Assembly: GCF_963676685.1 (NCBI RefSeq)
Contig: NC_092353.1
Span: 5,146,001 to 5,210,000, forward strand
Length of the DNA stretch: 64,000 nt
Direction: 5' to 3'
Source of the DNA: Mytilus edulis
Taxonomy: Eukaryota
Part shown: positions 9,201 through 54,466 of the stretch, one piece after another
Numbering within the stretch: the first letter of the stretch is position 1
Layout: every line of letters starts with the position of its first letter
Notes under the pieces: generated by a model
What the model was told of the DNA's origin: nothing
Seen by the model: the letters and a program-made list of their open reading frames with translations, nothing else
Databases searched by the model: none
Position numbers and translations under genes: made by a program

Positions 9201-12200
9201 GTCCACCACTTTTTGGGAAAAATTTGGTTGATTATATTGGAAATCACTGAAGCATGACTGGAGCGGGCCACCCCCCTTTCTCCCTTAGGTCAGTAAGTGC
9301 CCCCCTCATGAAAAGTTCTGGATCCACCTATTGACACCTCCTGGATCCACCATTGACTAGGCCAACCTTAAAAATATGTTTGTTTGCAGTTTTCCGACTG
9401 TACCTTCAGACTGAAGGGTCGGTAGGTAGGAAAAATATTTTATTTTATCAGCCAAAATACAGTTTAAACAAGCAGTTACACTAAACCAAGTTTCTTGTGA
9501 AGAAAAAAAAACATTTTAAAACAACAAACACTGGACATGCTGAAAACCAACATCAAATGAACAGGCATTTTCAGATAAAAAACTTTTTAACCAAAACTGA
9601 AACTTTAACATAGTGTCATTATCCAATTTATGACATAAAATATGGTATAATTATTAAATACTGGAACACTTATAAACAAGGAATGTCATTATGACTAGAA
9701 CTGTTTTAAAGAAATATATTCAGACATGTATGCTTCTTGACTAGAATGTTTTCATGAGTAGAGTTTTTTCATCAGAAAAATGTAGATATTAAAGATTTAT
9801 AAAACAATGTATTAAAGAGTGTATTTTTAATAAAAAAAAAATAACCATTGAATCTTCCTCAATTGAAAAAAAGGCAACTTGAAAAAAAGTATTAAGACAT
9901 TCGACTGTTTTCATATTTCTAACAATATTTAATTATATGTGATAAGGTTATATTTTTGCCAGGCTTTAATGAAAACCAAAGAAATCTAAAGTTTGGGGTG
10001 AAATCCATAGCACCCCATTAAAAGTAAATGGTCTGTACTGAAATGTTTTTAATGCATAAAAAAAATTGGCAGCATAGCTCCTAAGTACATGTTTTAATTG
10101 AATTCACACAGGCCACACAGTTTGGGTATATTTAATATTGTAAGAAAGAGAATAATTGCAATGAGTGGGCCAGCCCCCCCCCCCCCCCCCCCCCCCCTTA
10201 TCCTATAGGAGCATACTCATTGCAATCGAAGATAGATTTAATATAGAGAGAGTATATTTATTTTTCAAGCTAACCATTCATTTTCTCTACATCTTTGTGT
10301 AGTTAAGGTTGCTTCTTATTGATTTGGCATGATCTATATCCATTAACATTTCAAATGAGCCCTTCCTCCGTACAGGCGTGTTTACAGATATCCATGAAGA
10401 TGTAAGTCACGGAGGAGTGGTTTCATCTTTGTCGTCTTCACAACGATTTGTAGAAAATATGCCATACTTCAAGCTGCTGTCGAATTATTTAACCACTGAA
10501 ATTGGTTCCATAAAGTCAGGCTCCACAGATTCTGTACCCGATTTGTTTGAGACAGAATGGTTATTGTGTCAGTTATGAATATCCGCTGCATCATCGTCAA
10601 TGATATCATCACACATCATTACATGTGCCTGAATCTGTATAAACAGTTTACTAATAAACTTTTTTGTTTTTTATTTGTCTTAAAATTGACACGAGACGAC
10701 AGCGTAAAGTACTCCTCCGTGACTTCATGGATACCTGTAAACAATTTCCATGTGCTTTATCATTAAATGGTCACATGAACGCTTGACGGGAAGCTAAGAA
10801 AAACCGAACTTGAAATGCGTAATTGACCCAGACTTTAAATCATTTCCGGAAAGGACCCAAAGTTCCGGATTGCGTCAATAGAAGTTTTAAAAAAAAATTC
10901 TTCAAATTTAAAGCAATAAAATTTTCACAGTCGGGAGGATTTTCAAGGGTCGGTCGGTAAACTGCAAACAAACAATATTTTAATTTAAGCCCTATATCAT
11001 GTATAATTTTCCTTCTATCTGAACTGACTGATTGTTATTTAATCATTGGAGCTGGCCTTGCTATGAGTATTATTGGATCAGTTAACTATCTCAAATGGGC
11101 CAGTCATTGGGTAAGGATCTTCTCATAATAACCCAAGACAACATTGTAAACTGAGGTGAAGCCAATGTAAATAATGTCTTTTAAATGGGAACAATCTGCT
11201 TTATCCCCTATGACTGTTTTAATTTTTCTGTCATTATTGTCTCTTAAAATTTTATATTGAAAGATAAATAAAATAAGATTTCAAGTACCTAACACTGGCA
11301 AATACAGTCATTAGAAAAGGAACTAAAGTGAAGAAAACAATCTTCATGATCTTTGAATAAGGTTTACACTGGAGCATTATGTCTTTAAAGTTAAATCTGG
11401 CATTTTTATGTGAAGCATACCAGAATAGCTGCAGCCAGGAATTAAAATATTTATGCTGATTATTTAAACTGGTCTTTGGGATTCATTTATTTTTGTAGGT
11501 TCCAATTTTCTTGGTTTGAGGAAAACTTGCATATAGGTGGATATTTAGTTTCGCGGTTTTTGCTTTCATGGTTTTTTGCCAAGTCTGCACACATTCCATA
11601 ACAAAATTGTTATTTGTAGAACATTTGCATTGTGGTTCCCCTGTACCAATGAAATCAAAGAAAATTTGGTATACAACAAATATTTATGAATGCACAGTAT
11701 TTCCATGATTTCAGTACCTGATTTCAGTTTTGTCACATAGACAGACTACACTAACATCAATTTATTATAATGTTGAGCATGTTGAGTAAAATTAGATTCA
11801 GATATTTGAATGTATGCCATATTTTAATATATGAACTTGTTTTTACAGAGATTTAGTGGCAGAAGTGCATATAATGCGGTCAGAAATAAGAGGTATAGTT
11901 TCTTTACTGAAGAATTCTTATTGTTATTTTAAGTTTGACTCGTAAGATGTGACTGCCACTGGCTATGTAGTCAATTTAATTTATACGGCAACATGACCTG
12001 ATTACACACACAAGTGACTAATGCAAATTATTTAAAAGATATTTCTAAGACAATATAAAATGTGACACAATTTTTACTGGATGAACATCTTCTTGAAGAA
12101 GTACACTATGATCTACTTGAAAGAAGAACACTGTGATCTACTTGAAAGAAGAACACTGTGTTCTACCTGAAAGAAGAACACTGTGATCTACTTGAAAGTA

Positions 12201-15200
12201 CTCGAAAGAAGAACACTGGGATCTACTCGAAAGAAGTACACTCTGATCTACTCGAAAGAAGTACACTGTGATCTACTCGAAAGAAGAACACTGTGATCTA
12301 CTCGAAAGAAAAACACTGTGATCTACTTGAAAGAAGAACACTGTGATCTACTTGAAAGAATGAACTGTGTTCTACTTGAAAGAAGAACACTGTGTTCTAC
12401 CTGAAAGAAGTACACTGTGTTCTACTTGAAAGTACTCGAAAGAAGAACACTGGGATCTACTCGAAAGAAGTACACTCTGATCTACTTGAAAGAAGTACAC
12501 TGTGATCTACTCGAAAGAAGAACACTGTGATCTACTCGAAAGAAGGACACTGTGATCTACTGGAAAGAAGAACACTGTGATCTACTGGAAAGATCTACAC
12601 TGTGATCTACTCGAAAGAAGTACACTGTGATCTACTGGAAAGAAGAACACTGTGATCTACTGGAAAGAAGTACACTGTGATCTACTCGAAAGAAGTACAC
12701 TCTGGTCTACTGGAAAGAAGAACACTGTGATCTACTCGAAAGAAGAACACTCTGATCTTCTCTAAAGAAGAACACTCTGATCTACTCGAAAGAAGAACAC
12801 TCTGATCTACTCGAAAGAAGAACACTCTGATCTACTCGAAAGAAGAACACTCTGATCTACTCGAAAGAAGTATACTCTGATCTACTCGAAAGAAGAACAC
12901 TCTGATCTACTCAAAAGAAGAACACTCTGATCTACTTGAAAGAAGAACACTGTGATCTACTTGAAAGAAGAACACTGTGATCTACTTGAAAGAAGTACAC
13001 TGTGTTCTACTTGAAAGAATGAACTGTGTTCTACTTGAAAGAAGAACACTGGGATCTACACGAAAGAAGTACACTCTGATCTACTCGAAAGAAGAACACT
13101 GTGATCTACTCGAAAGACGAACACTGTGATCTACTTGAAAGAAGAACACTGTGATCTACTTGAAAGAAGTACACTGTGTTCTACTTGAAAGAAGAACACT
13201 GTGTTCTACATGAAAGAAGTACACTGTGTTCTACTTGAAAGTACTCGAAAGAAGAACACTTGGATCTACTCGAAAGAAGTACACTCTGATCTACTCGAAA
13301 GAAGTACACTGTGATCTACTCGAAAGAAGAACACTATGATCTACTCTAAAGAAGAACACTGGGATCTACTCGAAAGAAGTACACTCTGATCTACTTGAAA
13401 GAAGTACACTGTGATCTACTTGAAAGAAGAACAATGTGATCTACTCGAAAGAAGTACACTGTGATCTACTCGAAAGAAGAACACTGTGATCTACTGGAAA
13501 GAAGAACACTGTGATCTACTGGAAAGAAGTACACTGTGATCTACTGGAAAGAATTACACTGTGGTCTACTGGAAAGAAGAACACTGTGATCTACTCGAAA
13601 GGAGTAGACTGTGATCTAATGGAAAGAAGTACACTGTGGTTTACTCGAAAGAAGTACATTGGGGTCTACTCGAAAGAAGAACACTCTGATCTTCTCTAAA
13701 GAAGAACACTCTGATCTACTCGAAAGAAGAACACTCTGATCTTCTCGAAAGAAGAACACTCTGATCTACTCGAAAGAAGTATACTCTGATCTACTCGAAA
13801 GAAGAACACTGTTTTACCTGAAAGAAGAACACTGGGATCTACACGAAAGAAGTACACTCTGATCTACTCGAAAGAAGAATGATCTTCCTTGAAAAAAGAT
13901 CATAGTGTACTTCTTTCGAGTAGATCAGAGTGTACTTCTTTCCAGTAGATCACAGTGTCCTTCTTTCCAGTAGATCACAGTGTCCTTCTTTCCAGTAGAT
14001 CACAGTGTCCTTCTTTCCAGTAGATCACAGTGTCCTTCTTTCCAGTAGATGACAGTGTCCTTCTTTCCAGTAGATGACAGTGTCCTTCTTTCCAGTAGAT
14101 GACAGTGTCCTTCTTTCCAGTAGATGACAGTGTCCTTCTTTCCAGTAGATGACAGTGTCCTTCTTTCCAGTAGATGACAGTGTCCTTCTTTCAAGTAGAT
14201 GACAGTGTCCTTCTTTCAAGTAGATCACAGTGTCCTTCTTTCAAGTAGATCACAGTGTCCTTCTTTCAAGTAGATCACAGTGTCCTTCTTTCAAGTAGAT
14301 CACAGTGTCCTTCTTTCAAGTAGATCACAGTGTCCTTCTTTCAAGTAGATCACAGTGTCCTTCTTTCAAGTAGATCACCGTGTCCTTCTTTCAAGTAGAT
14401 CACCGTGTCCTTCTTTCAAGTAGATCACCGTGTCCTTCTTTCAAGTAGATCACCGTGTCCTTCTTTCAAGTAGATCACCGTGTCCTTCTTTCAAGTAGAT
14501 CACAGTGTACTTCTTTCAAGTAAATCACTGTGTTCTTCTTTCAAGTAGATCACCGTGTACTTCTTTCTAGTAGATCACAGTGTACTTCTTTCAAGTAGAT
14601 CAAAGTAGATCACAGTGTTCTTCTTTCAAGTAGATCACAGTGTACTTCTTTCAAGTAGATCACAGTGTACGTCTTTCAAGTGAAGAACACTGTATTCTAC
14701 TTTAAAGAAGTACACTTTGATCTACTTGTTTTAAAAGTTTCATTTATACACATGAGAATAAATTAACACTAGGTCAAGGGACTGATAGAGCGTTTTACAC
14801 TTGGCCATGACCATGAGGACTTTGGTCAACTGTCTGATGAAGAATATAATAAATATTATAGTTTATATGTTTTCAATATGGTTCAGAAAATAACATTTGT
14901 TCAGCAGTCTAATAAAGATTTTTAGCCATGCAAACATTAGAATAGTTGATACATGTACTATAACAAACAATAGCTTTTCATAAAGAAAAAATGAAATATA
15001 AGTAAAAAAGCATACAGCTTCATCATTAGACTTCAACACTATGCTCAAATAATAATTCCATTGTTCAATAAAGTAAATCAATTATCAACATCCTTATATT
15101 AAGTTATCAGCCCTGAATCTAAATGTATTGTATGATACCCGTAGTTTTATCTTTCTGTTCTCAAGACCTTGTTGCAGATCCATGATATTTTTGTATTAAA

Positions 15201-37038: not shown

Positions 37039-37251
37039 TGTTGTAAAGGTGCAATAATTCGATATACCTTTCCTAATATAAGATGTTGTCTTGGTAGAAT
37101 ATACTGATAGGGCAGGAATCCCAGGGCTGGAGTTCACCACAAGTGGGTCGTCTGAGCTCCGGATATATTCTGCGAGGTTGCGCAGTAAATACTAACTGAA
37201 GTTCCGGTAACAAATCTGGTTGTGGCAATCACTTTCCGGACATTTACTACA
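37039..37251 (-). repeat. 3' LTR (213 bp)
   Basis: Identical by eye to 45606-45818; tgttg...taca termini. Confidence 0.97.
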
Positions 37252-37260
37252 TTCCTCCCC
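37252..37260 (-). other. Polypurine tract
   Basis: Minus strand GGGGAGGAA directly abuts the 3' LTR. Confidence 0.85.
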
Positions 37261-37402
37261 GTTTTATTAAAACGTCAGCCATCAATGCTGGCACTAATAA
37301 CGATATGCTAAAATCCTTCACCGAACCAAAAAACAAATTCATAACTGTCAATCAATCAATAATCTGGTTAAAAGCATATATACAAATTCCTTCATCCTGC
37401 AT

Positions 37403-41900: not shown

Positions 41901-43523
41901 CTTTGGCAAAGGAAACACGTCCTTAGTTGTCACTTTATTAAGGGGACGAAAATCAATACAGTACCTCAGACTGCCGTCCTTCTTTCTTACTAAAACAGGA
42001 CAGGAACACCAATCTGAAATAGAAGGTTTAATAACCCCCTTATCTAACATTTGACTAAGATGTTTTTCTTCTTCATTTTCAAATTTCAGTGGAGTTCTAC
42101 GCATTTGTTGTTTAATTGCAGCTGCCTCCCCTGTGTGAATTCGATGTTTAATATCCCCATTAAACAATCCCAGATCCATGTCGCCTTTAGAAAAAATATT
42201 TTGAAATTCAATGAGTACTTCAGCAATCTTTATGCTACGATCTATGTCAAAATCTTTTACTGTTCGAGTATACAAATCTTTTAGGTGTTCTGGAATCTTA
42301 GAATTGAGTTCTTTTAATTTGTTTAGTTTATTTACAGAATTTCCATCTTTTAGTATAGTACGAATTTCTGTGGACGGTTTGACAGAAAATCTGTCACCTT
42401 TGAGCGGTTTGACAGAAAATCTGTCACCTTGAGGCGGACTGACAGAAAATCTGTCACCTTGGGAAGGATTGACAGAAAATCTGTCACCTTGGGACGGACT
42501 GACAGAAAATCTGTCACCTTGAGGCGGACTGACAGAAAATCTGTCACCTTGGGATGGACCAGCAGAAACCCTGTCACCTACACGTACCTTTTCCAATGTC
42601 TCGAAATTACCAGTTGGCGAACTGACAGAAAATCTGTCACTTATGTTTTCTGACGTTTTACACGAATTTGCATTATCGACATTGACAGAAACTCTGTCAC
42701 TATGTACTTCGGGGTCTTCAGCCAAATCACCCTGATCAGTTACAACATTGTATATCTCCATACCAATACCAAATTTATGACCTCCTTTCAATGTGATAAA
42801 AGTGTCTGTGTCATTTCGAAATACAGCCTTCACGGATTCATCCTTAGCAATTAAAGCATTTGGGGACAGAAGACCTTTTAAATTGGATTTCGGCTGAATG
42901 ATGATATCATCTGCTTGGGGATGATCAATTTCCATATCAACTATTTTTAAACTATGAGGTGGCACAACTGTTTTCTTTTTTATACTAATCCTGTATAAGT
43001 TTATTTCTTCTCCCTCGTTCCCAACAAAACAGACCGCTGGTATAGCCTCATTGTTTATGTGGACTGTGTAGTTTGCCATATCAATAACTGCTCCAAATTT
43101 CTCCAAGAAATCAATACCCAGAATGATATTATCATTTATGTTAGCAGTTACAAACCTCCATTTTGATTTTAACTTCCCTATTTCGATAGGTATCTCCTCT
43201 GTATATCTAGCATCAATTTTAGAATTTTTTCCAGCTCCTCGCAAAACTAAATGTTCCTTTAGTTTAATTGTTGACTGTAAAAGTGGTAAAATTGAAGTAC
43301 TCAAAACAGATATTTGTGCTGCACTATCTATTACAGCCTTAAATGTTCTTCCTAAAATTTTCATCTCAATGAACAAAGTTTTTGATTTTTTGCTTTTATC
43401 AAATGAAAAAATTTCTTGAATCGAAAACTTCTGTTCTTGACCAGACATTTCTGTTGGCGGTTGGCCTGTATCATCTGAAAAGGTCAAGGATTGGCCTACA
43501 TCCTTGGCCCTGAGTCGTTTAAA
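38937..43523 (-). CDS. pol: Pol polyprotein (aspartic protease, RT, RNase H, integrase), expressed by -1 frameshift from gag
   Basis: Protease VIDSAA. RT LPFGLCNSPATF and YLDD. RNase H LDTDAS...ELLA...RTDH. Integrase HHCC, HLD..HTDQG..GQVER and WKGPY. The ORF has no stops. Confidence 0.95.
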   Translation of the reverse strand, partial: FKRLRAKDVGQSLTFSDDTGQPPTEMSGQEQKFSIQEIFSFDKSKKSKTLFIEMKILGRTFKAVIDSAAQISVLSTSILPLLQSTIKLKEHLVLRGAGKNSKIDARYTEEIPIEIGKLKSKWRFVTANINDNIILGIDFLEKFGAVIDMANYTVHINNEAIPAVCFVGNEGEEINLYRISIKKKTVVPPHSLKIVDMEIDHPQADDIIIQPKSNLKGLLSPNALIAKDESVKAVFRNDTDTFITLKGGHKFGIGMEIYNVVTDQGDLAEDPEVHSDRVSVNVDNANSCKTSENISDRFSVSSPTGNFETLEKVRVGDRVSAGPSQGDRFSVSPPQGDRFSVSPSQGDRFSVNPSQGDRFSVSPPQGDRFSVKPLKGDRFSVKPSTEIRTILKDGNSVNKLNKLKELNSKIPEHLKDLYTRTVKDFDIDRSIKIAEVLIEFQNIFSKGDMDLGLFNGDIKHRIHTGEAAAIKQQMRRTPLKFENEEEKHLSQMLDKGVIKPSISDWCSCPVLVRKKDGSLRYCIDFRPLNKVTTKDVFPLPKIESCMDTLRGSAYMSTLDMAAGYWQIEIDEKDRHKTAFVTKYGLFEHVRLPFGLCNSPATFSRVIQLVLKGLTWKECLAYLDDVIVLGHSFDDHLIKLLHILKRFQYYNLKLKPSKCFLFQKEVKFLGKIVNKDGISVNPENMQTVKSWPRPKKKKELESFLGFTNYHREHIKNYAEIAVSLHKLTGGKSEFVWTEEQENAFEQLKIALVNSSVLAYPDPEATFILDTDASDKTIGAELSQLQDGKERTISFSSKVLTPAQKKYCTTRKELLAIVTFTRQYRHYLLGNQFVVRTDHNSLTWLLNFKNIEGQLARWIEELSQYNMLVQHRPGKKHVNADALSRIPDTLNECNSYLPSIPLNNLPCGGCKYCTRARSQWSTFEEEVDFVKPLTVRAVSIKDVTSTKGKILQPYTENELRDAQKNDIDLSTVIAWLSTDFSPSKQDLQMSSPLVRHLWQSKSQLEFRNGILYYFWDDAVAPRLLFITPRKLRQEMLHLCHDLRSAGHLGQDKTLAKLRHTVYWYGMTMDCKLYVSTCHICNRYKKPLKRAKAELGRYHSGVPFERIHLDILGPLPVTQQNNKYVLVIIDQFTKWLECCPLPNQNAEVVAKALMDSTISRFGCPMELHTDQGKNVDGRVIRQLCDLLEVSKTRTSAYHPASNGQVERYNRIITQLIRCFLKKNQNRWDIHLQQLAGAIRATENRQTGFTPNFMVFGREVNQPIDLVLGQIKERFPDQDICKYVQSLRNSLKDAHDIARDNLKSAQKRQKQDYDLNLNFRKYCVGDIVLKLDTARKVGISPKLKAPWKGPYVVIEVKSPALLKIKDRKREEVVHHDRLKLCIDREIPLWLQRLRNDILGRAENKLERDTNMELEDLYLDILFSGENQNTQNGLNPLSESLTDDLDNNDPFLVSDSLTNNYNNEQIIIKDLHSLIDIPSDLDATLAYDLSQNSLLPNSDDINRDTDKLDNGSKQGQVGRRKRQMPSYLHDYVQ
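42380..42699. repeat. In-frame 30-bp tandem repeat with a palindromic core in the pol PR-RT linker (GDRFSVSPxQ)
   Basis: tgacagaaaatctgtca at 42380, 42410, 42440, 42470, 42500, 42530 and 42623. Variants at ~42560 and 42683. Confidence 0.95.
43478..43523 (-). promoter_or_regulatory. -1 programmed ribosomal frameshift signal
   Basis: T TTA AAC in the gag frame (43523-43517), a ~7-nt spacer, then stem GGCCAAGGAT/ATCCTTGACC. Pol is in the -1 frame and is open from 43541. Confidence 0.85.
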
Positions 43524-45046
43524 GCTTTTGGTGATGGAGATCTATTACGATAGGGAGAACTATTTCTGGGCTTCTTGCAATCCCTACTAAAATGACCTTC
43601 TTCCCCGCAATTGTAGCAATTACCTCTTGCAGGACTATTGTACCTTCTTTGTGGCGAAAAAGCTCGATCTGTTCTTTGTGGTGACCTTGACCTCATATTC
43701 TGACTTACTATGCTCAATACTTTTTTTACCATGATCTTAGTTTCTAATAAATCATCTTCTGTCTTCTGTAATCTTTTCTCGAACACATTCATCTTATTTG
43801 TTCCTTCGTCAGACTTCATAATTGCACGGACTGATGTTTCCTGTGTATCCTCATTCTCATCATTTTGCTCCATAAAAGAAACCCTTTTAATTTCTGCTCT
43901 TCGTGTACCCATTATGACTTTTTGATTCGCCACTGCACTTCGTACATATTGTACCGCTTGATCCAGAGCATCTGGATTTTTGTCCATAGCAGTCAAAGCT
44001 GCACGCTTGTCTACACAACCTTTAAGAAAAGCATCTGTTGCCAAAGTTTGTACGAAATTATCTGGTGTATCCGGGTAGCCATCGGTAGCCAGCTCCTGTG
44101 CTCTTTCTGCAAATTCCTCTAACGATTCCTCTTGCTCTTGCTTAAGATCTTGTAAAAGTCTTCTTACAATGTGTGGCGGTTCCTTTCTACCAAAACGCTC
44201 TTCCATTTTCTTGCATAAGCTTTCATAATTAGTTTGTACTAACTTTGGTCTTGAGCTGTAAAATTTCAAAGCTTTATCTCGCAAACATTCAATCAATTTA
44301 TACAACCTTTGCTCACTCTGCCATTTGCATCTATCAGCTATAGTGCTAAATTGTAGATAATAAGGACGCCAGTCATTTCTGCCATCATATGTTGACATCT
44401 TTGGTGCTGTGGGACCACCATAATCTGAGTGTTTATGATCATTAGCATTATATTTTCCTTTCAATAATTGAACAGGACTACTCTTTTCCTCTTTTTCGGC
44501 TATTACTTTTTCTACTTTAAGCAAAGTTTCTTTCTGCTGTAGTTGAGTCTGAATTTTCTTTGAATATTCATGTATATCTTTAATCTCTTCATTCTGTGAT
44601 TTAATCATTTCTTTCATTTGTTCAATTTGTTCCTGTTTTTGTTTTGTATAAACGTCTCTTTGTTGTTCAAACATAAGCCTCTGTTCTTCTATATGTGCTT
44701 TACTCTGTTCAGAAATTTTCTCTATTTTTGTTTGAAAAGTCTCTGCCATATCATCTCTGGATTTTTCTACCGACAAAATCTTGTGACGTAATGATTCAAT
44801 GGTATTTTTCAGGACCTCTTGACCTTCATCAGACTCCTCTGGGTCCTCAAAACAAATTATTTTCTCATTCAACAGTGCAGTCCACAATGATTGTGGTGCT
44901 TCTGGAATCTCCTTTAAATTATCTAAATTAAGTAATCCGTCTTCTTCTCTCTTTGCAATTATTGCTAAGGCTCTAGTTTCACCTATCTTTTTAATCGCTT
45001 TTAACTGTGTAAAGTTAGCTTTGTTTATATTAATAGGTTTTGCCAT
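43496..45046 (-). CDS. gag: Gag with N-terminal helix-hairpin-helix domain, coiled coil, capsid-like region and CCHC knuckle (~516 aa from first ATG)
   Basis: Starts MAKPININKANFTQLKAIKKIGETRALAIIAKRE. Capsid-like YDGRNDWRPYYLQF...LKQEQEESLEEFAER...FLKG. Zinc knuckle CYNCGEEGHFSRDC. Confidence 0.92.
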   Translation of the reverse strand: MAKPININKANFTQLKAIKKIGETRALAIIAKREEDGLLNLDNLKEIPEAPQSLWTALLNEKIICFEDPEESDEGQEVLKNTIESLRHKILSVEKSRDDMAETFQTKIEKISEQSKAHIEEQRLMFEQQRDVYTKQKQEQIEQMKEMIKSQNEEIKDIHEYSKKIQTQLQQKETLLKVEKVIAEKEEKSSPVQLLKGKYNANDHKHSDYGGPTAPKMSTYDGRNDWRPYYLQFSTIADRCKWQSEQRLYKLIECLRDKALKFYSSRPKLVQTNYESLCKKMEERFGRKEPPHIVRRLLQDLKQEQEESLEEFAERAQELATDGYPDTPDNFVQTLATDAFLKGCVDKRAALTAMDKNPDALDQAVQYVRSAVANQKVIMGTRRAEIKRVSFMEQNDENEDTQETSVRAIMKSDEGTNKMNVFEKRLQKTEDDLLETKIMVKKVLSIVSQNMRSRSPQRTDRAFSPQRRYNSPARGNCYNCGEEGHFSRDCKKPRNSSPYRNRSPSPKALNDSGPRM

Positions 45047-45591: not shown

Positions 45592-45604
45592 ACTTCTGAC
45601 ACCA
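45592..45604 (-). other. Primer-binding site complementary to the tRNA-Leu 3' end
   Basis: Minus strand TGGTGTCAGAAGT, one base after the 5' LTR. The plus strand reads ttcgaaccgacttctgacacca, resembling a tRNA-Leu 3' end. Confidence 0.85.
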
Positions 45605-45605
45605 A

Positions 45606-45818
45606 TGTTGTAAAGGTGCAATAATTCGATATACCTTTCCTAATATAAGATGTTGTCTTGGTAGAATATACTGATAGGGCAGGAATCCCAGGGCTGGAGT
45701 TCACCACAAGTGGGTCGTCTGAGCTCCGGATATATTCTGCGAGGTTGCGCAGTAAATACTAACTGAAGTTCCGGTAACAAATCTGGTTGTGGCAATCACT
45801 TTCCGGACATTTACTACA
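45606..45818 (-). repeat. 5' LTR (213 bp)
   Basis: Identical by eye to 37039-37251; followed by the PBS on the minus strand. Confidence 0.97.
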
Positions 45819-46228
45819 ATACTTTGTACCAAGATGAAAATAAAACATAATTCTCTTCATTATGTCCTTCAATTAATCGGGTTCACTTTTTTTATTGAAA
45901 AAAATTCAAATACACATCTTTTTATAATAACATTTGGCAGTGATCACTTCCGGCATGCACGGAAATGCAAAAATGGACACAACAAAAGACGTGGAGATGT
46001 TTACATTGCTCAACGGTGAACTGCTTTTTACAATAACTAACTTGCTGCTCAGAAAATATAGAACATGAGCAGCATTTTGGTGTACTATGAGGCAGTTTCA
46101 CATAAGTCACATACATAGAACGAATCCTCAAACAGTCGTGTTGATCCGTCGACAGAAGAAGAAAAAGGTATAATTTCATGTTTAATGCGACTATCGTAAT
46201 ATCTTTATATGTCGTCTGCCTCCTAGAA

Positions 46229-49200
46229 ATGCCTACCATTAGGAGTGTTAAAGGGCGCTTTTCAACTAAGAAACCTGTAGAAAGAATACATAACTTTATT
46301 GAAAGTAGACGAAAAGTTAAAACACAACCAAAGAAGTTCTCTGTCTCAGACATAGTTTTAGAAGACCACCCTTATTTTATTTCATCATCACTGCAAACAT
46401 CATCTACATTAACCAAATATCCTCCTGAAACCAACAAAAGCTATCACGAACATGACAGAGATGATTTATTTAATGAATATATTCCATCTGATCTTGTCCC
46501 CCTAGACCATTGTAGATTCCTGTGTGAATTGGAGTATTTGGCTAGTCAGCTGAAAAGCTGTATCGGGTGTAACAAACCCCTTCATTTGCACGATGCCAGG
46601 GGTGTTAGATGCTATGGCGTTTCAGGAATTTTGTATATTGTCTGCCATAGACCAATATGTGGTCGTTTAAACAAAATTAAATTAGGGAAGACACATTACC
46701 CTGGTGAAAACAAGAGAGGCATAGGTGTATTTGATGTCAACACTAAAATAGCTACAGGTTAACATGCATTTAAAAATGTTTAATTTTATGTTTATAACAG
46801 TAAGGCCAAGGGACACCAGTTCCCGTTACCAGGTTTTAATTGTAATGATATTCATTGAGCAGAACAAATCGTCCCACTTGTGAAACGTGTTAACTTAAAT
46901 CCTGTCAATCATGTCAATGTTCCTTCGGCCAACTTGTCCAACTTAATGAAAAAGGCAAATGCTAGATGTATATAATTTTCATGTGATGATGTCTGCTAAC
47001 TCTCCAACTTTTGTTGGCATTCAAGTCAAATAAATACTGATAGTCACTTCTTTATGCTTTATTTCAACAAAAAGAAAAGAACTACAAATTAAATATAAGA
47101 AGATGTGGTATGTTGAGCAATGATGACATCCCTTCACAGAACCCAGTATCTCGCCTAATTTATGAAGTTGAGGAACGTTTACTGCAGATTGCATGTAATA
47201 TTTACCATGTTTACTGGAAGACCAGCTACGTCCATATATATATATAAGTAACATTATATTATACAAATATAAAATACAAATACAAACTTTAACCACAGAC
47301 ATGACAGAGTCAATATTTATTTATCTAATGTTTTCATAGATATTAATTTTATTAACTAGTGGGATGGGAACATGATAAATATACAACAGGATTGCATCTT
47401 TTTAATCAAGAAGGGCGAGTTGACAATACTTAATTCATCAGGATTAATCTATTTCTCACAAGTGGGGCGAGTTGACAGACCTTATTTCAGAGTGATTTTT
47501 ACCCTTTTCATAAATGATGCAAGTTAAACAAACCATTTTCAATTCTTTTTCACAAGTGAGGCCATTTGGTAAATCTAATTTGGTCAATTCAGAAAGTGGT
47601 GCAAGTTAAAAAAATGGGGCGGTTTGCCAGTGTGATGATTCTTCATGGATTCAATATACATCCTAATGTCTAAGAGATCCCAATTTTTTTTATACATGTG
47701 TATTATATGCCATAATTTCATGGGTATGTTTGAATATAAAAAAAAGATGTGGTATGATTGGCAATAAGACAACTCTCCACAAGAGACCAAAATGACACAG
47801 ATATTAACAATTATAGGTAACTGTACAGCCTTCAACAATGAGCAAAGCCTATACTGCATAGTCAGCTATAAAGGCCCTGAAATGACAATGTAAAACAATT
47901 CAAACGATAAAAGTAACAGCCTTATTTATTTAAAAAATGAACGAAAAACAAATAAGTAACACATAAACAAACAATAATGATTGAATTACAGGCTTCTGAC
48001 TTGGGGCAGGCAAATACATACATGTTCACTATGCTGAATTTAATATGAATGAAAAAAGTGGGTTTATGTTTTTTAAGTGCAACTAAAAGTTGAAATGTGT
48101 CCAGATTTAAATGATTACATATAAAGTTCTCATAATCATGATACATGTAATTCATTGTATTTCAAAATATCCAGGTATGATACATTCCGGCATCGGAGGA
48201 ACACAGTTGAGCAACTTTTTGTCTGTACTCAACATACATAGCATAGATTTCAAGGCATTAAAAGAGAGAGAAAATGAAACTGGAGCTGCTATAGAAGCAC
48301 AAGCAGAAATATCTGAGGAAAGATACTTACAAGAAGAAATAAACCAGTCATTTACAGGTTTAACATTTAAATTAGCCAGATACAAGCTTATGTTAAACTG
48401 GACATCTGTGTTGAATTGTTACTTATTTTAAGATTTACTTGAATTTAAAATTGAATACTTAAAAAAGTTCACCTATATGTATTATAATTTTAATATGAAA
48501 ATTGATAAAAAAAAAAGGAACTTCAGCATTTTTACATCTTATACAGACTTTGAAGTGAATTCAGACAAAGGTCATTAGATTTTTCAAAATGGAACGTTAA
48601 CCAGTGTTTAAATTTAATTATTCACATGATTAAGAAGCCTTTACATTTTTTTTCCATGGAGAGTGTTTGGGCATGGTCCATTGACTTTGAAACTTTTGCA
48701 TATCTTACATATTAAAGTTCATTTTACAGGGAACCCTTAATTGTAGGTCTATGATATTTAGTATGCAGTAGAATTATTATTGCCATATCATATTTCTAAA
48801 CTATTATTGAATATTATTGTCCATATTCCTTCAGTCATGACATGGTTCAGAAATTTTACTATTTTTATGAGTTAAGTGTTATAAAATATTGCTAAATGAA
48901 TTTCATTGTTTTCTTTTTCAGCAGTACATTATTTTAAACCTTTCATATTATTGTTCCCAAAATTCTTTAATAAATATTTATTTATCTAATTTACTACGGT
49001 ACTGTTATTCTCATAGTCATGTTAGTTGTCTAATTTGGAAGTGACTGTTAATTACACTATAGTACAAACAGTGATCATATAACCACTATATATCTTAGCT
49101 ATAGGAAAAAAAAAATTTCTCTCTTAATTATCATGATTTCAATATATGTATTTTCGTGCAGAGGAAAATGGTGACACACAAACAGGTATATCTGTATCAA

Positions 49201-52200
49201 CCGACACATGCTGGCAGAAGAAAGGTTCTGGTAGATCCTACAATAGTTTGTCAGGTATATATGGTTTGACAAGTAATATCCTCCTTGTACAAATACTCAT
49301 AAACTATTTCTATTGAATTATGTACAAAATGAAGTCAATTGAGATTCTACATCTATAAATATTCCACTGACCTGGATTTTGGATTTCATAATTATCAATA
49401 ACTTAGCTAATTAATATATAATTTAAAAAATATGTGTCCATAGGAAATTTCATAGACAAAATTTTGTTTGTCGAACATAAAATTGAGATTTAAAATGGGA
49501 AAAGTATCATGTAGACAACAACATGACTAAAGAGCAAATACAGCCCAAGGCCACCTATATAATTTTTCAACACAGCAGATAGGGATTTAGCTGGTCTTCT
49601 AACCATTATCCATACTAGTTGAGTGAAAATGAAAGTACACTTAATTCTGAATCACATAAATGAACCTTGACTTGGTTGCGATAACATTACATTGGTTTGC
49701 ATTTATGACAAATAGGGATTACTGTTGTTCTAACAACGACTTCCCTGTTTTCAAAAATAAGTTTATACACATGGAGATTTTTTTTTAACTATTTACAGGT
49801 GTTTCAACTTTGATAGGGACGAAAACAGGAAAAGTGGTGGATCATCGGTTAAGAATTTCCTCCTGTAAAATATGTGAAAAGGCCAAATCAAAGGAGATGA
49901 TTCCAAGGATACATCAATGTAGAAAAAATTGGAGTGGATCTGCTAAGGTAGTCTCCCAAAAATACAAAACAAATATCATTATATAACACTGATGTTCAGA
50001 ATTAAGTTTTCAGAAGTTCAAGAATTGCAAAATTATGACTTTGAAATAAATTATAAAAAATACAGACATTGTACACATCAAAATTAGAAGTACTGTCATT
50101 CACAAGCTCAGATGTGTATTTTGAATTATATATATAGGGATTGTCATCTTTTTATAGAAGTCGTAACTTTCATAGAGCTTAAGAATAAAGGTCAAATTTT
50201 ATTTTCCTGATTTTAGCTTTTCTCCTTGTTCAGTTAAAGCCCTTTCATAATAATTGAATTTTTGATGAAATACTTATTAACTATTTAAAATAGAATTCTG
50301 TTCAAAGGGAGATAACTCACTTTTAATTTTCCCTAGTTAATTATACCAATACATATATACAAATATTTTATTGGCACAAACTCAATTACAATAATTGGCA
50401 ACAGCCCATACAACTAGTATACAAATAGTAATGATGCAGCAATTAAACAATACTACATACATGTAGCATATCATTGGGCACTTTTTTAACCATGAAATTT
50501 GCACACAATCTTTCTTCTCTGTTAACTTTCACGTATCTACCTCTTTCAATTTCAAGATTTTTATACGACAGCAAAAATTGAAATTTTTTGGTCGTATATT
50601 GGTATCACGTTGGCGTCGTCGTTTGCGTCGTCGTCGTCCGAATACTTTTAGTTTTCGCACTCTTACTTTAGTAAAAGTGAATAGAAATCTATGAAATTTT
50701 AACACAAGGTTTATGAGCACAAAAGGAAGGTTGGGATTGATTCTGGGAGTTTTGGTCCCAACATTTTAGGAATTAGGGACCAAAAAGGGCCCAAATAAGC
50801 ATTTTCTTGGTTTTCGCACTATAACTTTAGTTTAAGTTAATAGAAATCTATAAAATTTTGACACAAGGTTTATGACCACAAAAGGAAGGTTGGGATTGAT
50901 TTTGGTAGTTTTAGTTCAAACAGTTCAGAAATTATGGGCCAAAAAAGGGCCAAAATAAGCATTATTCTTGGTTTTCGCACTATAACTTAAGTATAAGTAA
51001 ATAGAAATCAATGAAATTTAAACACAAAGTTTATGACCACAAAAGGAAGGTTGGGATTGATTTTGGGAGTTGAGGTCTGAACAGTTTAGGAATTAGGGGC
51101 CAACAAGGGGCCAAAGTAAGCATTATTCTTGGTTTTCGCACCATAACTTTAGTATAAGTGAATAGAAATCTATGAAATTTAAACACAAGGTTGGGTTTGA
51201 TTTTTTGAGTTACATTAAAAGATTTTAAACATAAGAAACCCAGATTATGGATACATTTCTTCATATTACTTGTCCATAGGTTGTTTTCTCTTGTTTGAAT
51301 AAATATATACAAGAGAGACAATTTCTGGTATACGTTCTTGCAATTTTTTTCTTAGGGTATGGAGCCAGATATGGTGGTAGAAATGCTAAAAGGACTGGAT
51401 GACAAAGACATAGTAATTTCACAGGTTGTAGGTGATGACGACTCTACTGGCTTTGACAGGGCAAAAGTATTAATGCCAAGTTCCTCAATGGTCAAAATCA
51501 GTGACAAAAACCATATAAAACACAATATAATAAAAAAAGTAAATGATTTAAAGTCAAAGCATAGAGAGTTGTCAGGGATGGTTGCAGAATCAATAGTTAA
51601 GAATGTGTCATATGTATTGGAACAGAATATTGGTAATCCTGAAGGAATTGAAAAAGGTTTTCATGCCACAGTCAACCATATGTATGGTGACCACCAATAC
51701 TGCACAGAAAATTGGTGTGGATATTTGAAAAACAAACACAACTATGTCCACTCAAACCTTCCTTATGGAAAAGATTTATCTTCCGCATCACTTAAATCAG
51801 ACCTAGAAAAGCTATTTATACAGCAGATGGTACCACAGTCGGACAAATTATCCCAATTAGGGTCTTCACAGGCAAATGAGAGCGTTAACAATATAATAGC
51901 TTTAAAAGCTCCAAAAACTAAACATTTTTCCTCATCTTCCAGCCTTAACTACAGAGTCAGCTCTGCTGTACTGCAAAAGAACGAGGGATATCATTACATA
52001 TCAGAGGTAATAGAATTATTTAAATCCTGTATTACATTTAGTTCTAGCACACATGACCTTCATTTGAAGATATCTTCTTACAGGAGTTGATGCCTTTAAT
52101 TTTTTTTCTTTGAGGAAACTAAACCTAAATTAAAGTTGATAGAGAGTACCTTTGGTTAATAAAAATAGTTCAACCAATATTATCTTAAATTATGTTAAAA

Positions 52201-54466
52201 TGGAGGAATTTTCAATTATAAAAGTTATTGCCCTTGAAATACTTACTTTTTCAACAAATAAACATAATTAACAAGATCCACACAGATTTGTTGGCTGGGC
52301 TGAAATTGTCAACTGAACCTAAATATCTCCATACAATAATTATTTTTTCTGAATAATGATAAAATTTATCAAGATCTATACAAATTACAGAACTTTTTCA
52401 AATATCAAGTTTAGAAAAAAAAGCCATATCAAGTACAGCTAAGGCATCATTAAAATTAATTACCAATATAGTTCACACAACATTATAAGCAGTCAGCCCA
52501 TCATATGATGCTTTATAATGTGCACATTATCTAAACCGTATTCATGTATACACTATATAATAATTTTGTAAGTAGTATAAAGTAATCATATGGACAAGAA
52601 ACAAAATATTCTGTTTGGTGTCTTGTACTTATATTGACACATATATATGATGTGAGTATGGATTACCTTTCTTTAATTTCAGTTAAATACATCTATAGGA
52701 CTATCACCAGGAAATGAGACAATACGAAGGGGTTCAAAGCTTAACCTGCAGAGATCGAAGAAGAAAGCAAAGACCCAAAGTAAGGAATGGAAGAAGAAGA
52801 GAATATTTTTGAAAAAGAAAAGAGCTAAAAGAACAGTATTGTCTGAAACGAAGGAAGGAACAACATACCAAAGTTCAATCGGTAATTTAAGAAAGATTTC
52901 AACACATATAAAAATGTTGGAATATTTACATTTTTTTATTTGCACCAAGGTGACAACTATCAACCAAAGTTAAAGCCATGTTGATATAGGCAATTATTAA
53001 CAATCTATGACCTTCAACAATGAGAAAAACTCAAACATTACAGTCTGCTATGAAAGGCCTTGACCTGAAAGATATGAAAACATTTAACTACAGGGTCATT
53101 TGCATGCCACATGTGAAATACATACCTAACATTCTGGTGATAAGAGTATGAAGAAAGAAGCATTTTGAAAAAAATCTGATTCTTTTAAAATCAATATACC
53201 TTTATAGTATGAAATTTGCTTTTAAAACCAGGTTTACAGGTTGATCAGAAGAAAGAAGACATAGAAAATATACCAGATATGCCAGATGATAGCCACCAAG
53301 TTGTAACTACTGATGCACCATTAGTGGTTTTTGATTTGGAGACGACTGGTCTCAGTAAGTAGAAAGCCCAGAAATCATATCACTGGTCTGACTAAAAGGA
53401 GATATTCTCATTAGTCATATGCATTCTTTATGCTTATCTGTAGGTCAACATTGTTTTGTTAAATGATATGTCAAGATTCCCTTTTAATGAAAATCAGTCA
53501 TTTTAAAATATAGTTTTGAGTAAATAAGTTTTTCAACGTAGAACTAGAACTTCTTACATTTGATTATATATTCATGACTTAATATTGCAGTTTTAAAACT
53601 TATGATGAATGAATTTTAATGCTTTAAAAGAAAATCTGAAATTAAAAACTGTTTCTTATTCTAAATTTTTTTTTTCAGGTAGATATTCAGATATTACTCA
53701 AATTGCAGCTTGCAATGTAGACAGAATATTCAGTCGTTATATTTTCCCTAACCAGCCTATATCAGCAGAAGCCTCTAGAATTACTGGATTAACTGTAGTT
53801 GGTAATAAGATGTATCACAATGGTTCATTGGTTCCGTACAAACTACCCCATGAAGGATTGACTGACTTTTTAAGTTATATATCCGAATTTAAAGACAAAC
53901 CTATATTAATAGGACATAACATTAAGAGATTTGATTGCCATGTTTTATTTAATACATTGTGCTCTCTAAATATGTGGAATGATTTTTCTTCCCAAATATC
54001 TTGTTTTATAGATTCTTTGAATTTGTTTAAACAGGTTGTTCCTGGTTTAGCATCATACAGTCAGTCTTTTTTAGTTAATAACTTACTAGGACAAGAGTAT
54101 GAGTCACATAATGCTGTCCATGATGCAAGATTATTGCTTAAACTAATAACTGACAAGGGAAATATTTCAAATTACCTTGATGATTTAGCTTTTTCACCAA
54201 ACTATCCTGACCAGTACCACTTGCAGTTGTGCAATTTGAAAACATATTCCAAAGTAATAAAGGAAAAAGTAATTTCAAAAGCTATGGCACTGAAAGCAGC
54301 TAAATCAAATCTGAAATTATGCCATTTGAAAATGTCTATAGATAGAGGTGGTAAAATGGGGCTAATAGCATTACTGTCAGAAAAGTCAGTTAAAACAGGA
54401 GATGTCAGAGTGACAAAAAACAAGAAAATATTACAAAGAATATTTGATTACTTTGAAAAACAATGA
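46229..54466 (+). CDS. Spliced DDE transposase ('Mutator-like' domain type) fused to a DEDDh 3'-5' exonuclease, 8 exons, ~904 aa
   Basis: Exons 46229-46757, 48175-48357, 49162-49254, 49799-49947, 51356-52006, 52683-52881, 53232-53354 and 53679-54466 have GT..AG boundaries and total 2715 nt in frame. Transposase motifs: Zn ribbon CIGC..C..C, DTCWQKKGSGRSYNSLSG, CKIC..H.C.KNWSGSAKGMEPD, VGDDDS, SSQANES. Exonuclease motifs: FDLETTGL, GHNIKRFD, HNAVHD. Confidence 0.88.
50555..51200 (+). mobile_element. Helentron-associated (DINE/HINE-like) element with ~160-bp internal tandem repeats, in transposase intron 4
   Basis: ttttatacgac...ggtcgtatatt short inverted motif, a cgt microsatellite, then units containing aaaaggaaggttgggattga at 50721, 50880 and 51041. 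Confidence 0.6.

Follow-up and report, generated by a model that had tools for sequence, protein, structure and literature searches.

In a 64,000-nucleotide stretch of Mytilus edulis DNA (hereafter, the window), a retrotransposon encodes a Gag protein whose first residues resemble the DNA-binding helix-hairpin-helix (HhH) domain of bacterial ComEA, and a third open reading frame, ORF3, that encodes a TatD nuclease. The locus thus raises the questions of whether the HhH is genuine, whether it belongs with the nuclease, and which nucleic acid, if any, it would hold. The HhH-Gag is a real, lineage-defining feature of Ty3/gypsy elements, for which we infer a function from sequence and predicted structure.

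The element and its reading frames

The window carries a complete Ty3/gypsy retrotransposon on the minus strand, which is intact, with paired LTRs, a primer-binding site, a polypurine tract and a GTAT target-site duplication at both flanks (Table 1). The insertion is recent. Gag is followed by Pol in the PR-RT-RH-IN order of Ty3/gypsy elements, and Pol overlaps gag in the -1 frame. Translation likely passes from Gag to Pol by a -1 frameshift at the TTTAAAC heptamer in this overlap, T TTA AAC being what we take to be a slippery-site pattern for such frameshifting. The host tRNA behind the primer-binding site was identified as tRNA-Leu CAG by ARAGORN, starting from host tRNA 3′ ends; elsewhere in the genome, a tandem array (G000:C7:21401335-21449307) holds 57 matches to the tRNA-Leu 3′ end, and the four genes checked there are tRNA-Leu(CAG).

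The TatD domain of ORF3 is matched by Pfam TatD_DNase with an E-value of 3e-42, and ORF3 also contains a zinc-finger-like region (CxxC...H). The TatD motifs DSHFH, GECGLD, HCR, HCF and ETDSP are intact and place the domain in class II, which is defined by HxH and by conserved Glu, His, His and Asp motifs; the motifs past HxH presumably fill the conserved class II roles. The closest named proteins to those of the element come from Mytilus. In four 2026 RNA runs, 23, 12, 6 and 0 reads fell on the element, with no joints among them, which is too few to judge expression or ORF3 splicing. Elsewhere in the window, the element has as neighbours pieces of a Mutator-like transposase and an exonuclease-like ORF of the RNase_T/PML_C kind (46145-54466), and a 25-nt tandem repeat forms two blocks in inverted orientation (12055-14732).

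Table 1. Features of the Ty3/gypsy element, in window coordinates.
Feature	Position	Strand	Description
5′ LTR	45606..45818	-	213 bp, TG...CA; 0 mismatches against the 3′ LTR
Primer-binding site	45592..45604	-	13 nt complementary to the tRNA-Leu(CAG) 3′ end, CCA tail assumed
Gag, 516 aa	43496..45046	-	HhH, variable linker, capsid-like domain, CCHC knuckle
ComEA-like helix-hairpin-helix, Gag residues 1-66	44849..45046	-	Pfam HHH_3, predicted model, match to ComEA 8dss
Likely -1 frameshift heptamer T TTA AAC, gag/pol overlap	43517..43523	-	From the sequence
Pol, 1534 open codons	38937..43541	-	Protease, RT, RNase H, integrase (gypsy order)
ORF3, 488 aa	37403..38869	-	C2H2-like zinc finger and class II (HxH) TatD nuclease domain
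Polypurine tract	37252..37265	-	From the sequence
3′ LTR	37039..37251	-	213 bp; 0 mismatches against the 5′ LTR

A ComEA-type domain at the start of Gag

The minus-strand ORF that opens with the ATG at 45046 starts MAKPININKANFTQLKAIKKIGETRALAIIAKREEDGLLNLDNLKEIP, which is the N-terminus of the 516-aa Gag. The first-pass annotation had recognised the ComEA/HHH_3 pattern in this peptide, and Pfam agrees: HHH_3 (PF12836) matches Gag residues 3-48 (E 2.8e-6), with 27.8 bits against a cut-off of 27 when the whole protein is scored and 31.8 bits for the isolated N-terminal piece. The further Pfam domains of Gag are Retrotrans_gag (253-322) and zf-CCHC (476-492); the linker and the capsid-like region are known from Pfam together with the alignment, and by inspection the linker appears coiled-coil-like. 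For the first 72 residues, the best PDB sequence match was ComEA 8dfk (E 0.0044). Searching the PDB with a profile of the 26-row HhH alignment gave EEPD1 (top, with two units at 31 and 29 bits) and ComEA (47.6 and 48.3 bits) as the best matches; against this profile, the EEPD1 units score 29-35 bits each, Tex 23 and ComEA about 48. The NCBIfam comEA models TIGR01259 and TIGR00426 match 23 and 21 of the 26 rows, respectively, at E ≤0.01, and the row of the window's Gag misses the cut-offs of both models (29.5 versus 152.35 and 24.6 versus 53.1 bits). When 1.84 billion representatives were searched with the HhH profile, the best 150 were multi-repeat proteins and uninformative on host range; clusters of HHH_3/ComEA came up in the ESM Atlas at 0.90 or below and serve as a lead only.

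Structure prediction pointed the same way. The AlphaFold2 model of Gag residues 1-70, computed from the 26-row alignment, has a mean pLDDT of 84 and places four helices at 12-17, 23-36, 41-45 and 52-60, that is, two HhH units joined by a loop with no connector helix, as in ComEA-type domains. Among 48,161 chains, its best structural match was ComEA 8dss (Z 10.4, rmsd 1.8 Å, 65 residues aligned), a Z of 10 being moderate for a small helical domain; next came Tex (Z 9.0), the ComEA-related 2duy (8.6), TEFM (7.0) and KIF22 (6.9), with Spt6 also listed. Foldseek ranked PolC and ComEA first, with a best E of 0.09 and no match at E ≤0.001. The predicted model supports a ComEA-type HhH fold at the Gag N-terminus and with it the earlier view that Gag carries here a domain foreign to its canonical architecture. 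The structural domain extends to about residue 66 (about 44849), little beyond the end at 44890 first assigned to it.

Like the ComEA domains 8dss, 8dfk and 2duy, the Gag domain has the four-helix HhH-loop-HhH arrangement, opens with ININ.A, and shares hairpin 1 as well as a basic residue where ComEA has K164. It differs in heading a retrotransposon Gag, where ComEA is a periplasmic uptake protein, in lacking the GhG of hairpin 2 and in scoring far under the comEA cut-offs. Bacterial ComEA or host EEPD1/KIF22 are candidate donors of the fold; a likely host EEPD1 copy lies at G000:C5:90761590. A host-looking 345-aa frame with an N-terminal HHH_3 (49.9 bits), a basic tail and no second Pfam domain was also seen (L138:3339-4373).

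The putative contact residues were then compared. In ComEA, the lysine numbered K164 or, in its equivalent, K166 is needed to bind DNA, and K166A abolishes binding in EMSA (PMC9747964). R25 of the window's Gag aligns with the lysine of ComEA GVGPSK, which, from the chain numbering, would be K164 (the equivalent of K166), so that R25 provides a basic residue at this position as far as that numbering holds. Sixteen of the 17 subclade-A-type rows have K or R in this column, and all nine rows of subclade B are non-basic there. Hairpin 1 of the window's Gag reads K-I-G22, with R25 and R33 also present; its second glycine is kept in 25/26 rows, and the first, a Lys in the window's copy, in 13/26. 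None of the 26 aligned domains has GhG in hairpin 2, and the canonical (HhH)2 arrangement for dsDNA binding, GhG in both units, is therefore absent. The domain is about neutral (10 K+R and 8 D+E in the window's copy), near-neutral or acidic in many members, and invariant at N8, L15 and R33. Taken together, the window's HhH appears to be a ComEA-type fold with one usable hairpin; it is predicted to bind dsDNA without sequence preference and, given the single hairpin and the near-neutral charge, binding would be weak per monomer.

Distribution, conservation and linkage to the TatD ORF3

Within the same genome we counted at least 128 HHH_3 matches (150 of 169 candidates scored) and at least 127 matches to the ORF3-type TatD (140 of 155 candidates scored). 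Of the 128 HHH_3 matches, 47 are followed on the same strand by an ORF3-like TatD no more than 13 kb away; chance alone would give about 0.0006 for each. A set of 120 loci, chosen by HhH, TatD or RT matches and hence biased toward domain-positive loci, was scored with profiles built from clade members, and Pfam independently confirmed the HhH and TatD domains found in this way. In RT/RNase H trees, which contain elements of this genome and one metagenome locus but no named reference elements, all sampled HhH- or TatD-bearing elements of the genome form one group, with a support of 1.0 in FastTree (89 rows, seven short RT matches dropped) and an SH-aLRT of 99 in a quick IQ-TREE search (42 rows). 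The 41 outgroup loci, of which 31 have an LTR pair at their ends, contain neither domain; their best scores are 9.3 bits for HhH and 7.7 bits for TatD. HHH_3 scores of related Gags reach 40.8 bits, and set against this outgroup maximum the match exceeds chance. Three degraded loci that lie near the clade by RT (L147, L148 and L150) have neither HhH nor TatD.

Among the 19 in-clade rows of the 42-row tree, both domains are present in 11 (the TatD of L036 being broken), HhH occurs with no TatD in the locus in six, and TatD without HhH in two; of these, L045, L066, L071, L141 and L145 carry deletions or were viewed in part. Two of the absences are firm. In the multi-copy L075 family, Gag, Pol and TatD are intact and the HhH is lacking (about 2 bits), and HhH is thus dispensable in this family. 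Since its placement is weakly supported (0.62-0.85; SH-aLRT 84), a loss of HhH is indistinguishable from a TatD gained first. Conversely, L064/L131 and L065/L132, viewed over their whole length including both LTRs, retain the HhH and have an ORF3 with the zinc-finger region in which TatD is absent. Among RT-less elements, too, HhH is retained at loci that lack TatD. HhH-Gag marks one Ty3/gypsy clade that also has the ZnF-TatD ORF3, and both domains probably trace to the base of this clade. The first-pass annotation had proposed a lineage with a two-part DNA-handling toolkit; the lineage-wide co-occurrence stands, but since intact multi-copy families can lack either one while keeping the other, HhH and TatD are not an obligate pair, and the HhH-Gag lineage has its TatD ORF3 as a separate accessory and not as a required partner.

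Several apparent exceptions were set aside. The L079 family, HhH-less by Pfam, contains a diverged HhH, and L058 and L141, which seemed to lack TatD, have a near-identical relative, L133, that has it. The protein P0120, with TatD plus HHH_3, would be a fusion, but its TatD fragment lies upstream of the HhH and it is likely a gene-model join; P0078, with SAP plus Gag, begins with 129 residues that match a separate repeat, unlinked to Gag in this genome, and is likely a gene-model chimera.

The clade is variable in its other parts. A Tpt1/KptA RNA 2′-phosphotransferase domain stands at the Pol N-terminus in two families and as the second ORF of RT-less elements, either with HhH-Gag or with Gags that resemble those of the sister group and have no HhH (L068:2234-7696, L139, L054-L057, L059, L060, L070 and L171-L174). 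A PHD finger follows the integrase at the Pol C-terminus in a sister sub-branch, subclade B (L133, L144, L052, L079 and L142); none was found in the Pol of the window or of L075. In L131:4318-5856 and L144:7851-9116, ORF3 keeps its zinc-finger region and has an unannotated C-terminus in place of TatD. L062:2221-8694 and L063 are bounded by LTRs (100% identical repeats), encode a single HhH-Gag-protease ORF of 1479-1541 aa and lack RT. In L083:481-6062 a TatD ORF adjoins a Helitron/PIF1/OTU ORF on the same strand, and another transposon class may therefore carry TatD.

The HhH domain itself is conserved and under purifying selection. Averaged over pairs from 30 full-length Gags, identity reaches 0.62 in the capsid-like region and 0.48 in the HhH and falls to 0.16 in the linker. 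The uncorrected pN/pS of the HhH, examined in 14 family pairs and five close copies, is 0.06/0.50 for L055-L068, 0.12/0.50 for L062-L066 and 0.18/0.65 for L061-L062; very close pairs hold too few changes for a verdict, and L051-L053 has two nonsynonymous changes and no synonymous one. An HhH is present in 58 of 83 Gag homologues, every one inside the first 15 residues, and for the other 25 the alignment to the query starts no earlier than residue 77. Named hosts of HhH-Gag include Mytilus, Crassostrea, Ostrea, Pinctada and the crayfish Procambarus, and ORF3-like TatD proteins are named from Mytilus, Crassostrea angulata and Mizuhopecten. Of nine metagenome loci, three have HhH-Gag and one has gag-pol-TatD, with the start of Gag cut off.

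What the HhH may hold

The conservation across families and hosts, the purifying selection and the fold match largely refute the reading that the HHH_3 match arose by chance or marks a neutral relic, which we consider very improbable even though the window's Pfam score is just 0.8 bit over the cut-off. A role with RNA is rather unlikely: the HhH would bind RNA or RNA-DNA hybrids and aid Gag in the capture, traffic or export of genomic RNA prior to assembly. Tex, the second structural match, and TEFM and Spt6, also listed, act on RNA or transcription complexes, and the degenerate hairpin 2 removes the paired-hairpin mode of dsDNA binding. There is precedent in Cer1, which exports its genomic RNA with an accessory protein (PMC10309623); on the other side, ComEA stands above Tex both by profile (47.6-48.3 versus 23 bits per domain) and by fold, and the CCHC knuckle of Gag already serves RNA. 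It is also unlikely that the HhH, with most of its binding to nucleic acids gone, is retained as a module for protein interaction or assembly, either a capsid spike or a dock for a host factor. The near-neutral or acidic charge of many members and the non-basic K164 position of subclade B would fit such a module, and the invariant N8, L15 and R33 may be structural, but the retention of the hairpin-1 glycine in 25/26 rows and of K/R25 in 16/17 subclade-A-type rows is unexpected if the domain is purely structural.

Host EEPD1 suggests a further arrangement by analogy, in that EEPD1 (PDB 9yi2) is an animal protein in which a ComEA-type HhH is paired with a nuclease; it differs in that its two HhH units are fused in cis to a nuclease of another family. 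HhH-Gag and ZnF-TatD would then be a split enzyme: with HhH holding the cDNA or the target DNA, TatD would cut abasic sites or trim 3′ ends as reverse transcription or integration proceeds. The two domains share a clade and probably its base, EEPD1 is the top PDB match of the HhH profile, the TatD motifs are intact, and both AP-endonuclease and 3′ exonuclease activity are known from human TatD enzymes (PMC10085689). We nevertheless find this quite improbable in view of the L075 family with TatD only, of L064/L131 and L065/L132 with HhH and no TatD, and of the RT-less elements that keep HhH with no TatD in the locus.

Our best explanation, which we hold at a little less than even confidence, is that the Gag HhH is an outward-facing, weak, avidity-based tether to host DNA. 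In PNMA2, whose capsid derives from Ty3, the outer spikes consist of protruding residues that precede the capsid domain (bioRxiv 10.1101/2023.02.09.527862). By analogy, the HhH would sit on the outside of the virus-like particle, facing the host cell and not the packaged genome, and the first-pass suggestion that it tethers the element's own cDNA is for this reason less likely than a hold on host DNA. Each copy may contact dsDNA through hairpin 1 and R25, and the many weak copies on a multimeric capsid could grip host DNA by avidity with no sequence preference. The particle or the pre-integration complex would so be held on chromosomes until integrase acts, much as the p12 region of MLV Gag, also upstream of capsid, tethers the integration complex to host chromosomes (PMC3531515); p12 is retroviral and unrelated in sequence, and the analogy is functional alone. 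The HHH_3 score above cut-off, ComEA as top match, R25, the kept hairpin-1 glycine, an identity higher in the HhH than in the linker, purifying selection, the N-terminal placement in all 58 homologues with the domain and the integrase PHD finger of subclade B speak for such a host-DNA tether. The Lys in place of the first hairpin-1 glycine, the moderate Z, the degenerate hairpin 2, the non-basic K164 position in subclade B, the neutral charge and the HhH-less L075 speak against it, as do the fold shared with Tex, TEFM and Spt6 and the best Foldseek E of 0.09.

More tentatively, the elements of molluscs and crustaceans may form an undescribed lineage with its own kit for DNA tethering and end processing, namely a capsid capped by a ComEA-type chromatin tether, an intact TatD ORF3 and, in some branches, PHD or Tpt1/KptA. 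One PHD-bearing lineage goes by the name Selgy. Our literature search on HhH, ComEA or TatD with LTR/gypsy retrotransposons found, among the papers listed, no description of this combination, the match for a Gag HhH dealing with an unrelated Cer1 domain, although an earlier annotation (e.g., in Repbase) is possible; nor do the available parts of surveys of mollusc, annelid and env-bearing gypsy elements and of gag co-option describe HhH-Gag, and their supplements may list domains. Named gypsy clades include C-clade and MolGy1-16 (PMC6238403). Retrotransposons capture chromatin readers (PMC6673714), and chromoviruses, PHD-bearing elements, rotifer Vesta/Juno (DEDDy ORF3) and CopiaMBD have likewise captured domains for handling chromatin or nucleic acids, along with enzymatic ORF3s (PMC6673714 and PMC5408684); the mussel element differs from these in that the extra module is an HhH capping Gag and that ORF3 is a ZnF-TatD.

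For only a few model elements is it known how the particles of LTR retrotransposons get to host chromosomes and remain there, and a conserved domain that is small, soluble and placed at the Gag tip offers a direct handle on this question. Families with HhH plus TatD, with HhH only and with TatD only provide natural controls in one genome. The HhH and ORF3 are also practical markers of a gypsy clade whose proteins are publicly annotated under host or bacterial names, as comEA, tatD, TATDN2 and TPT1.
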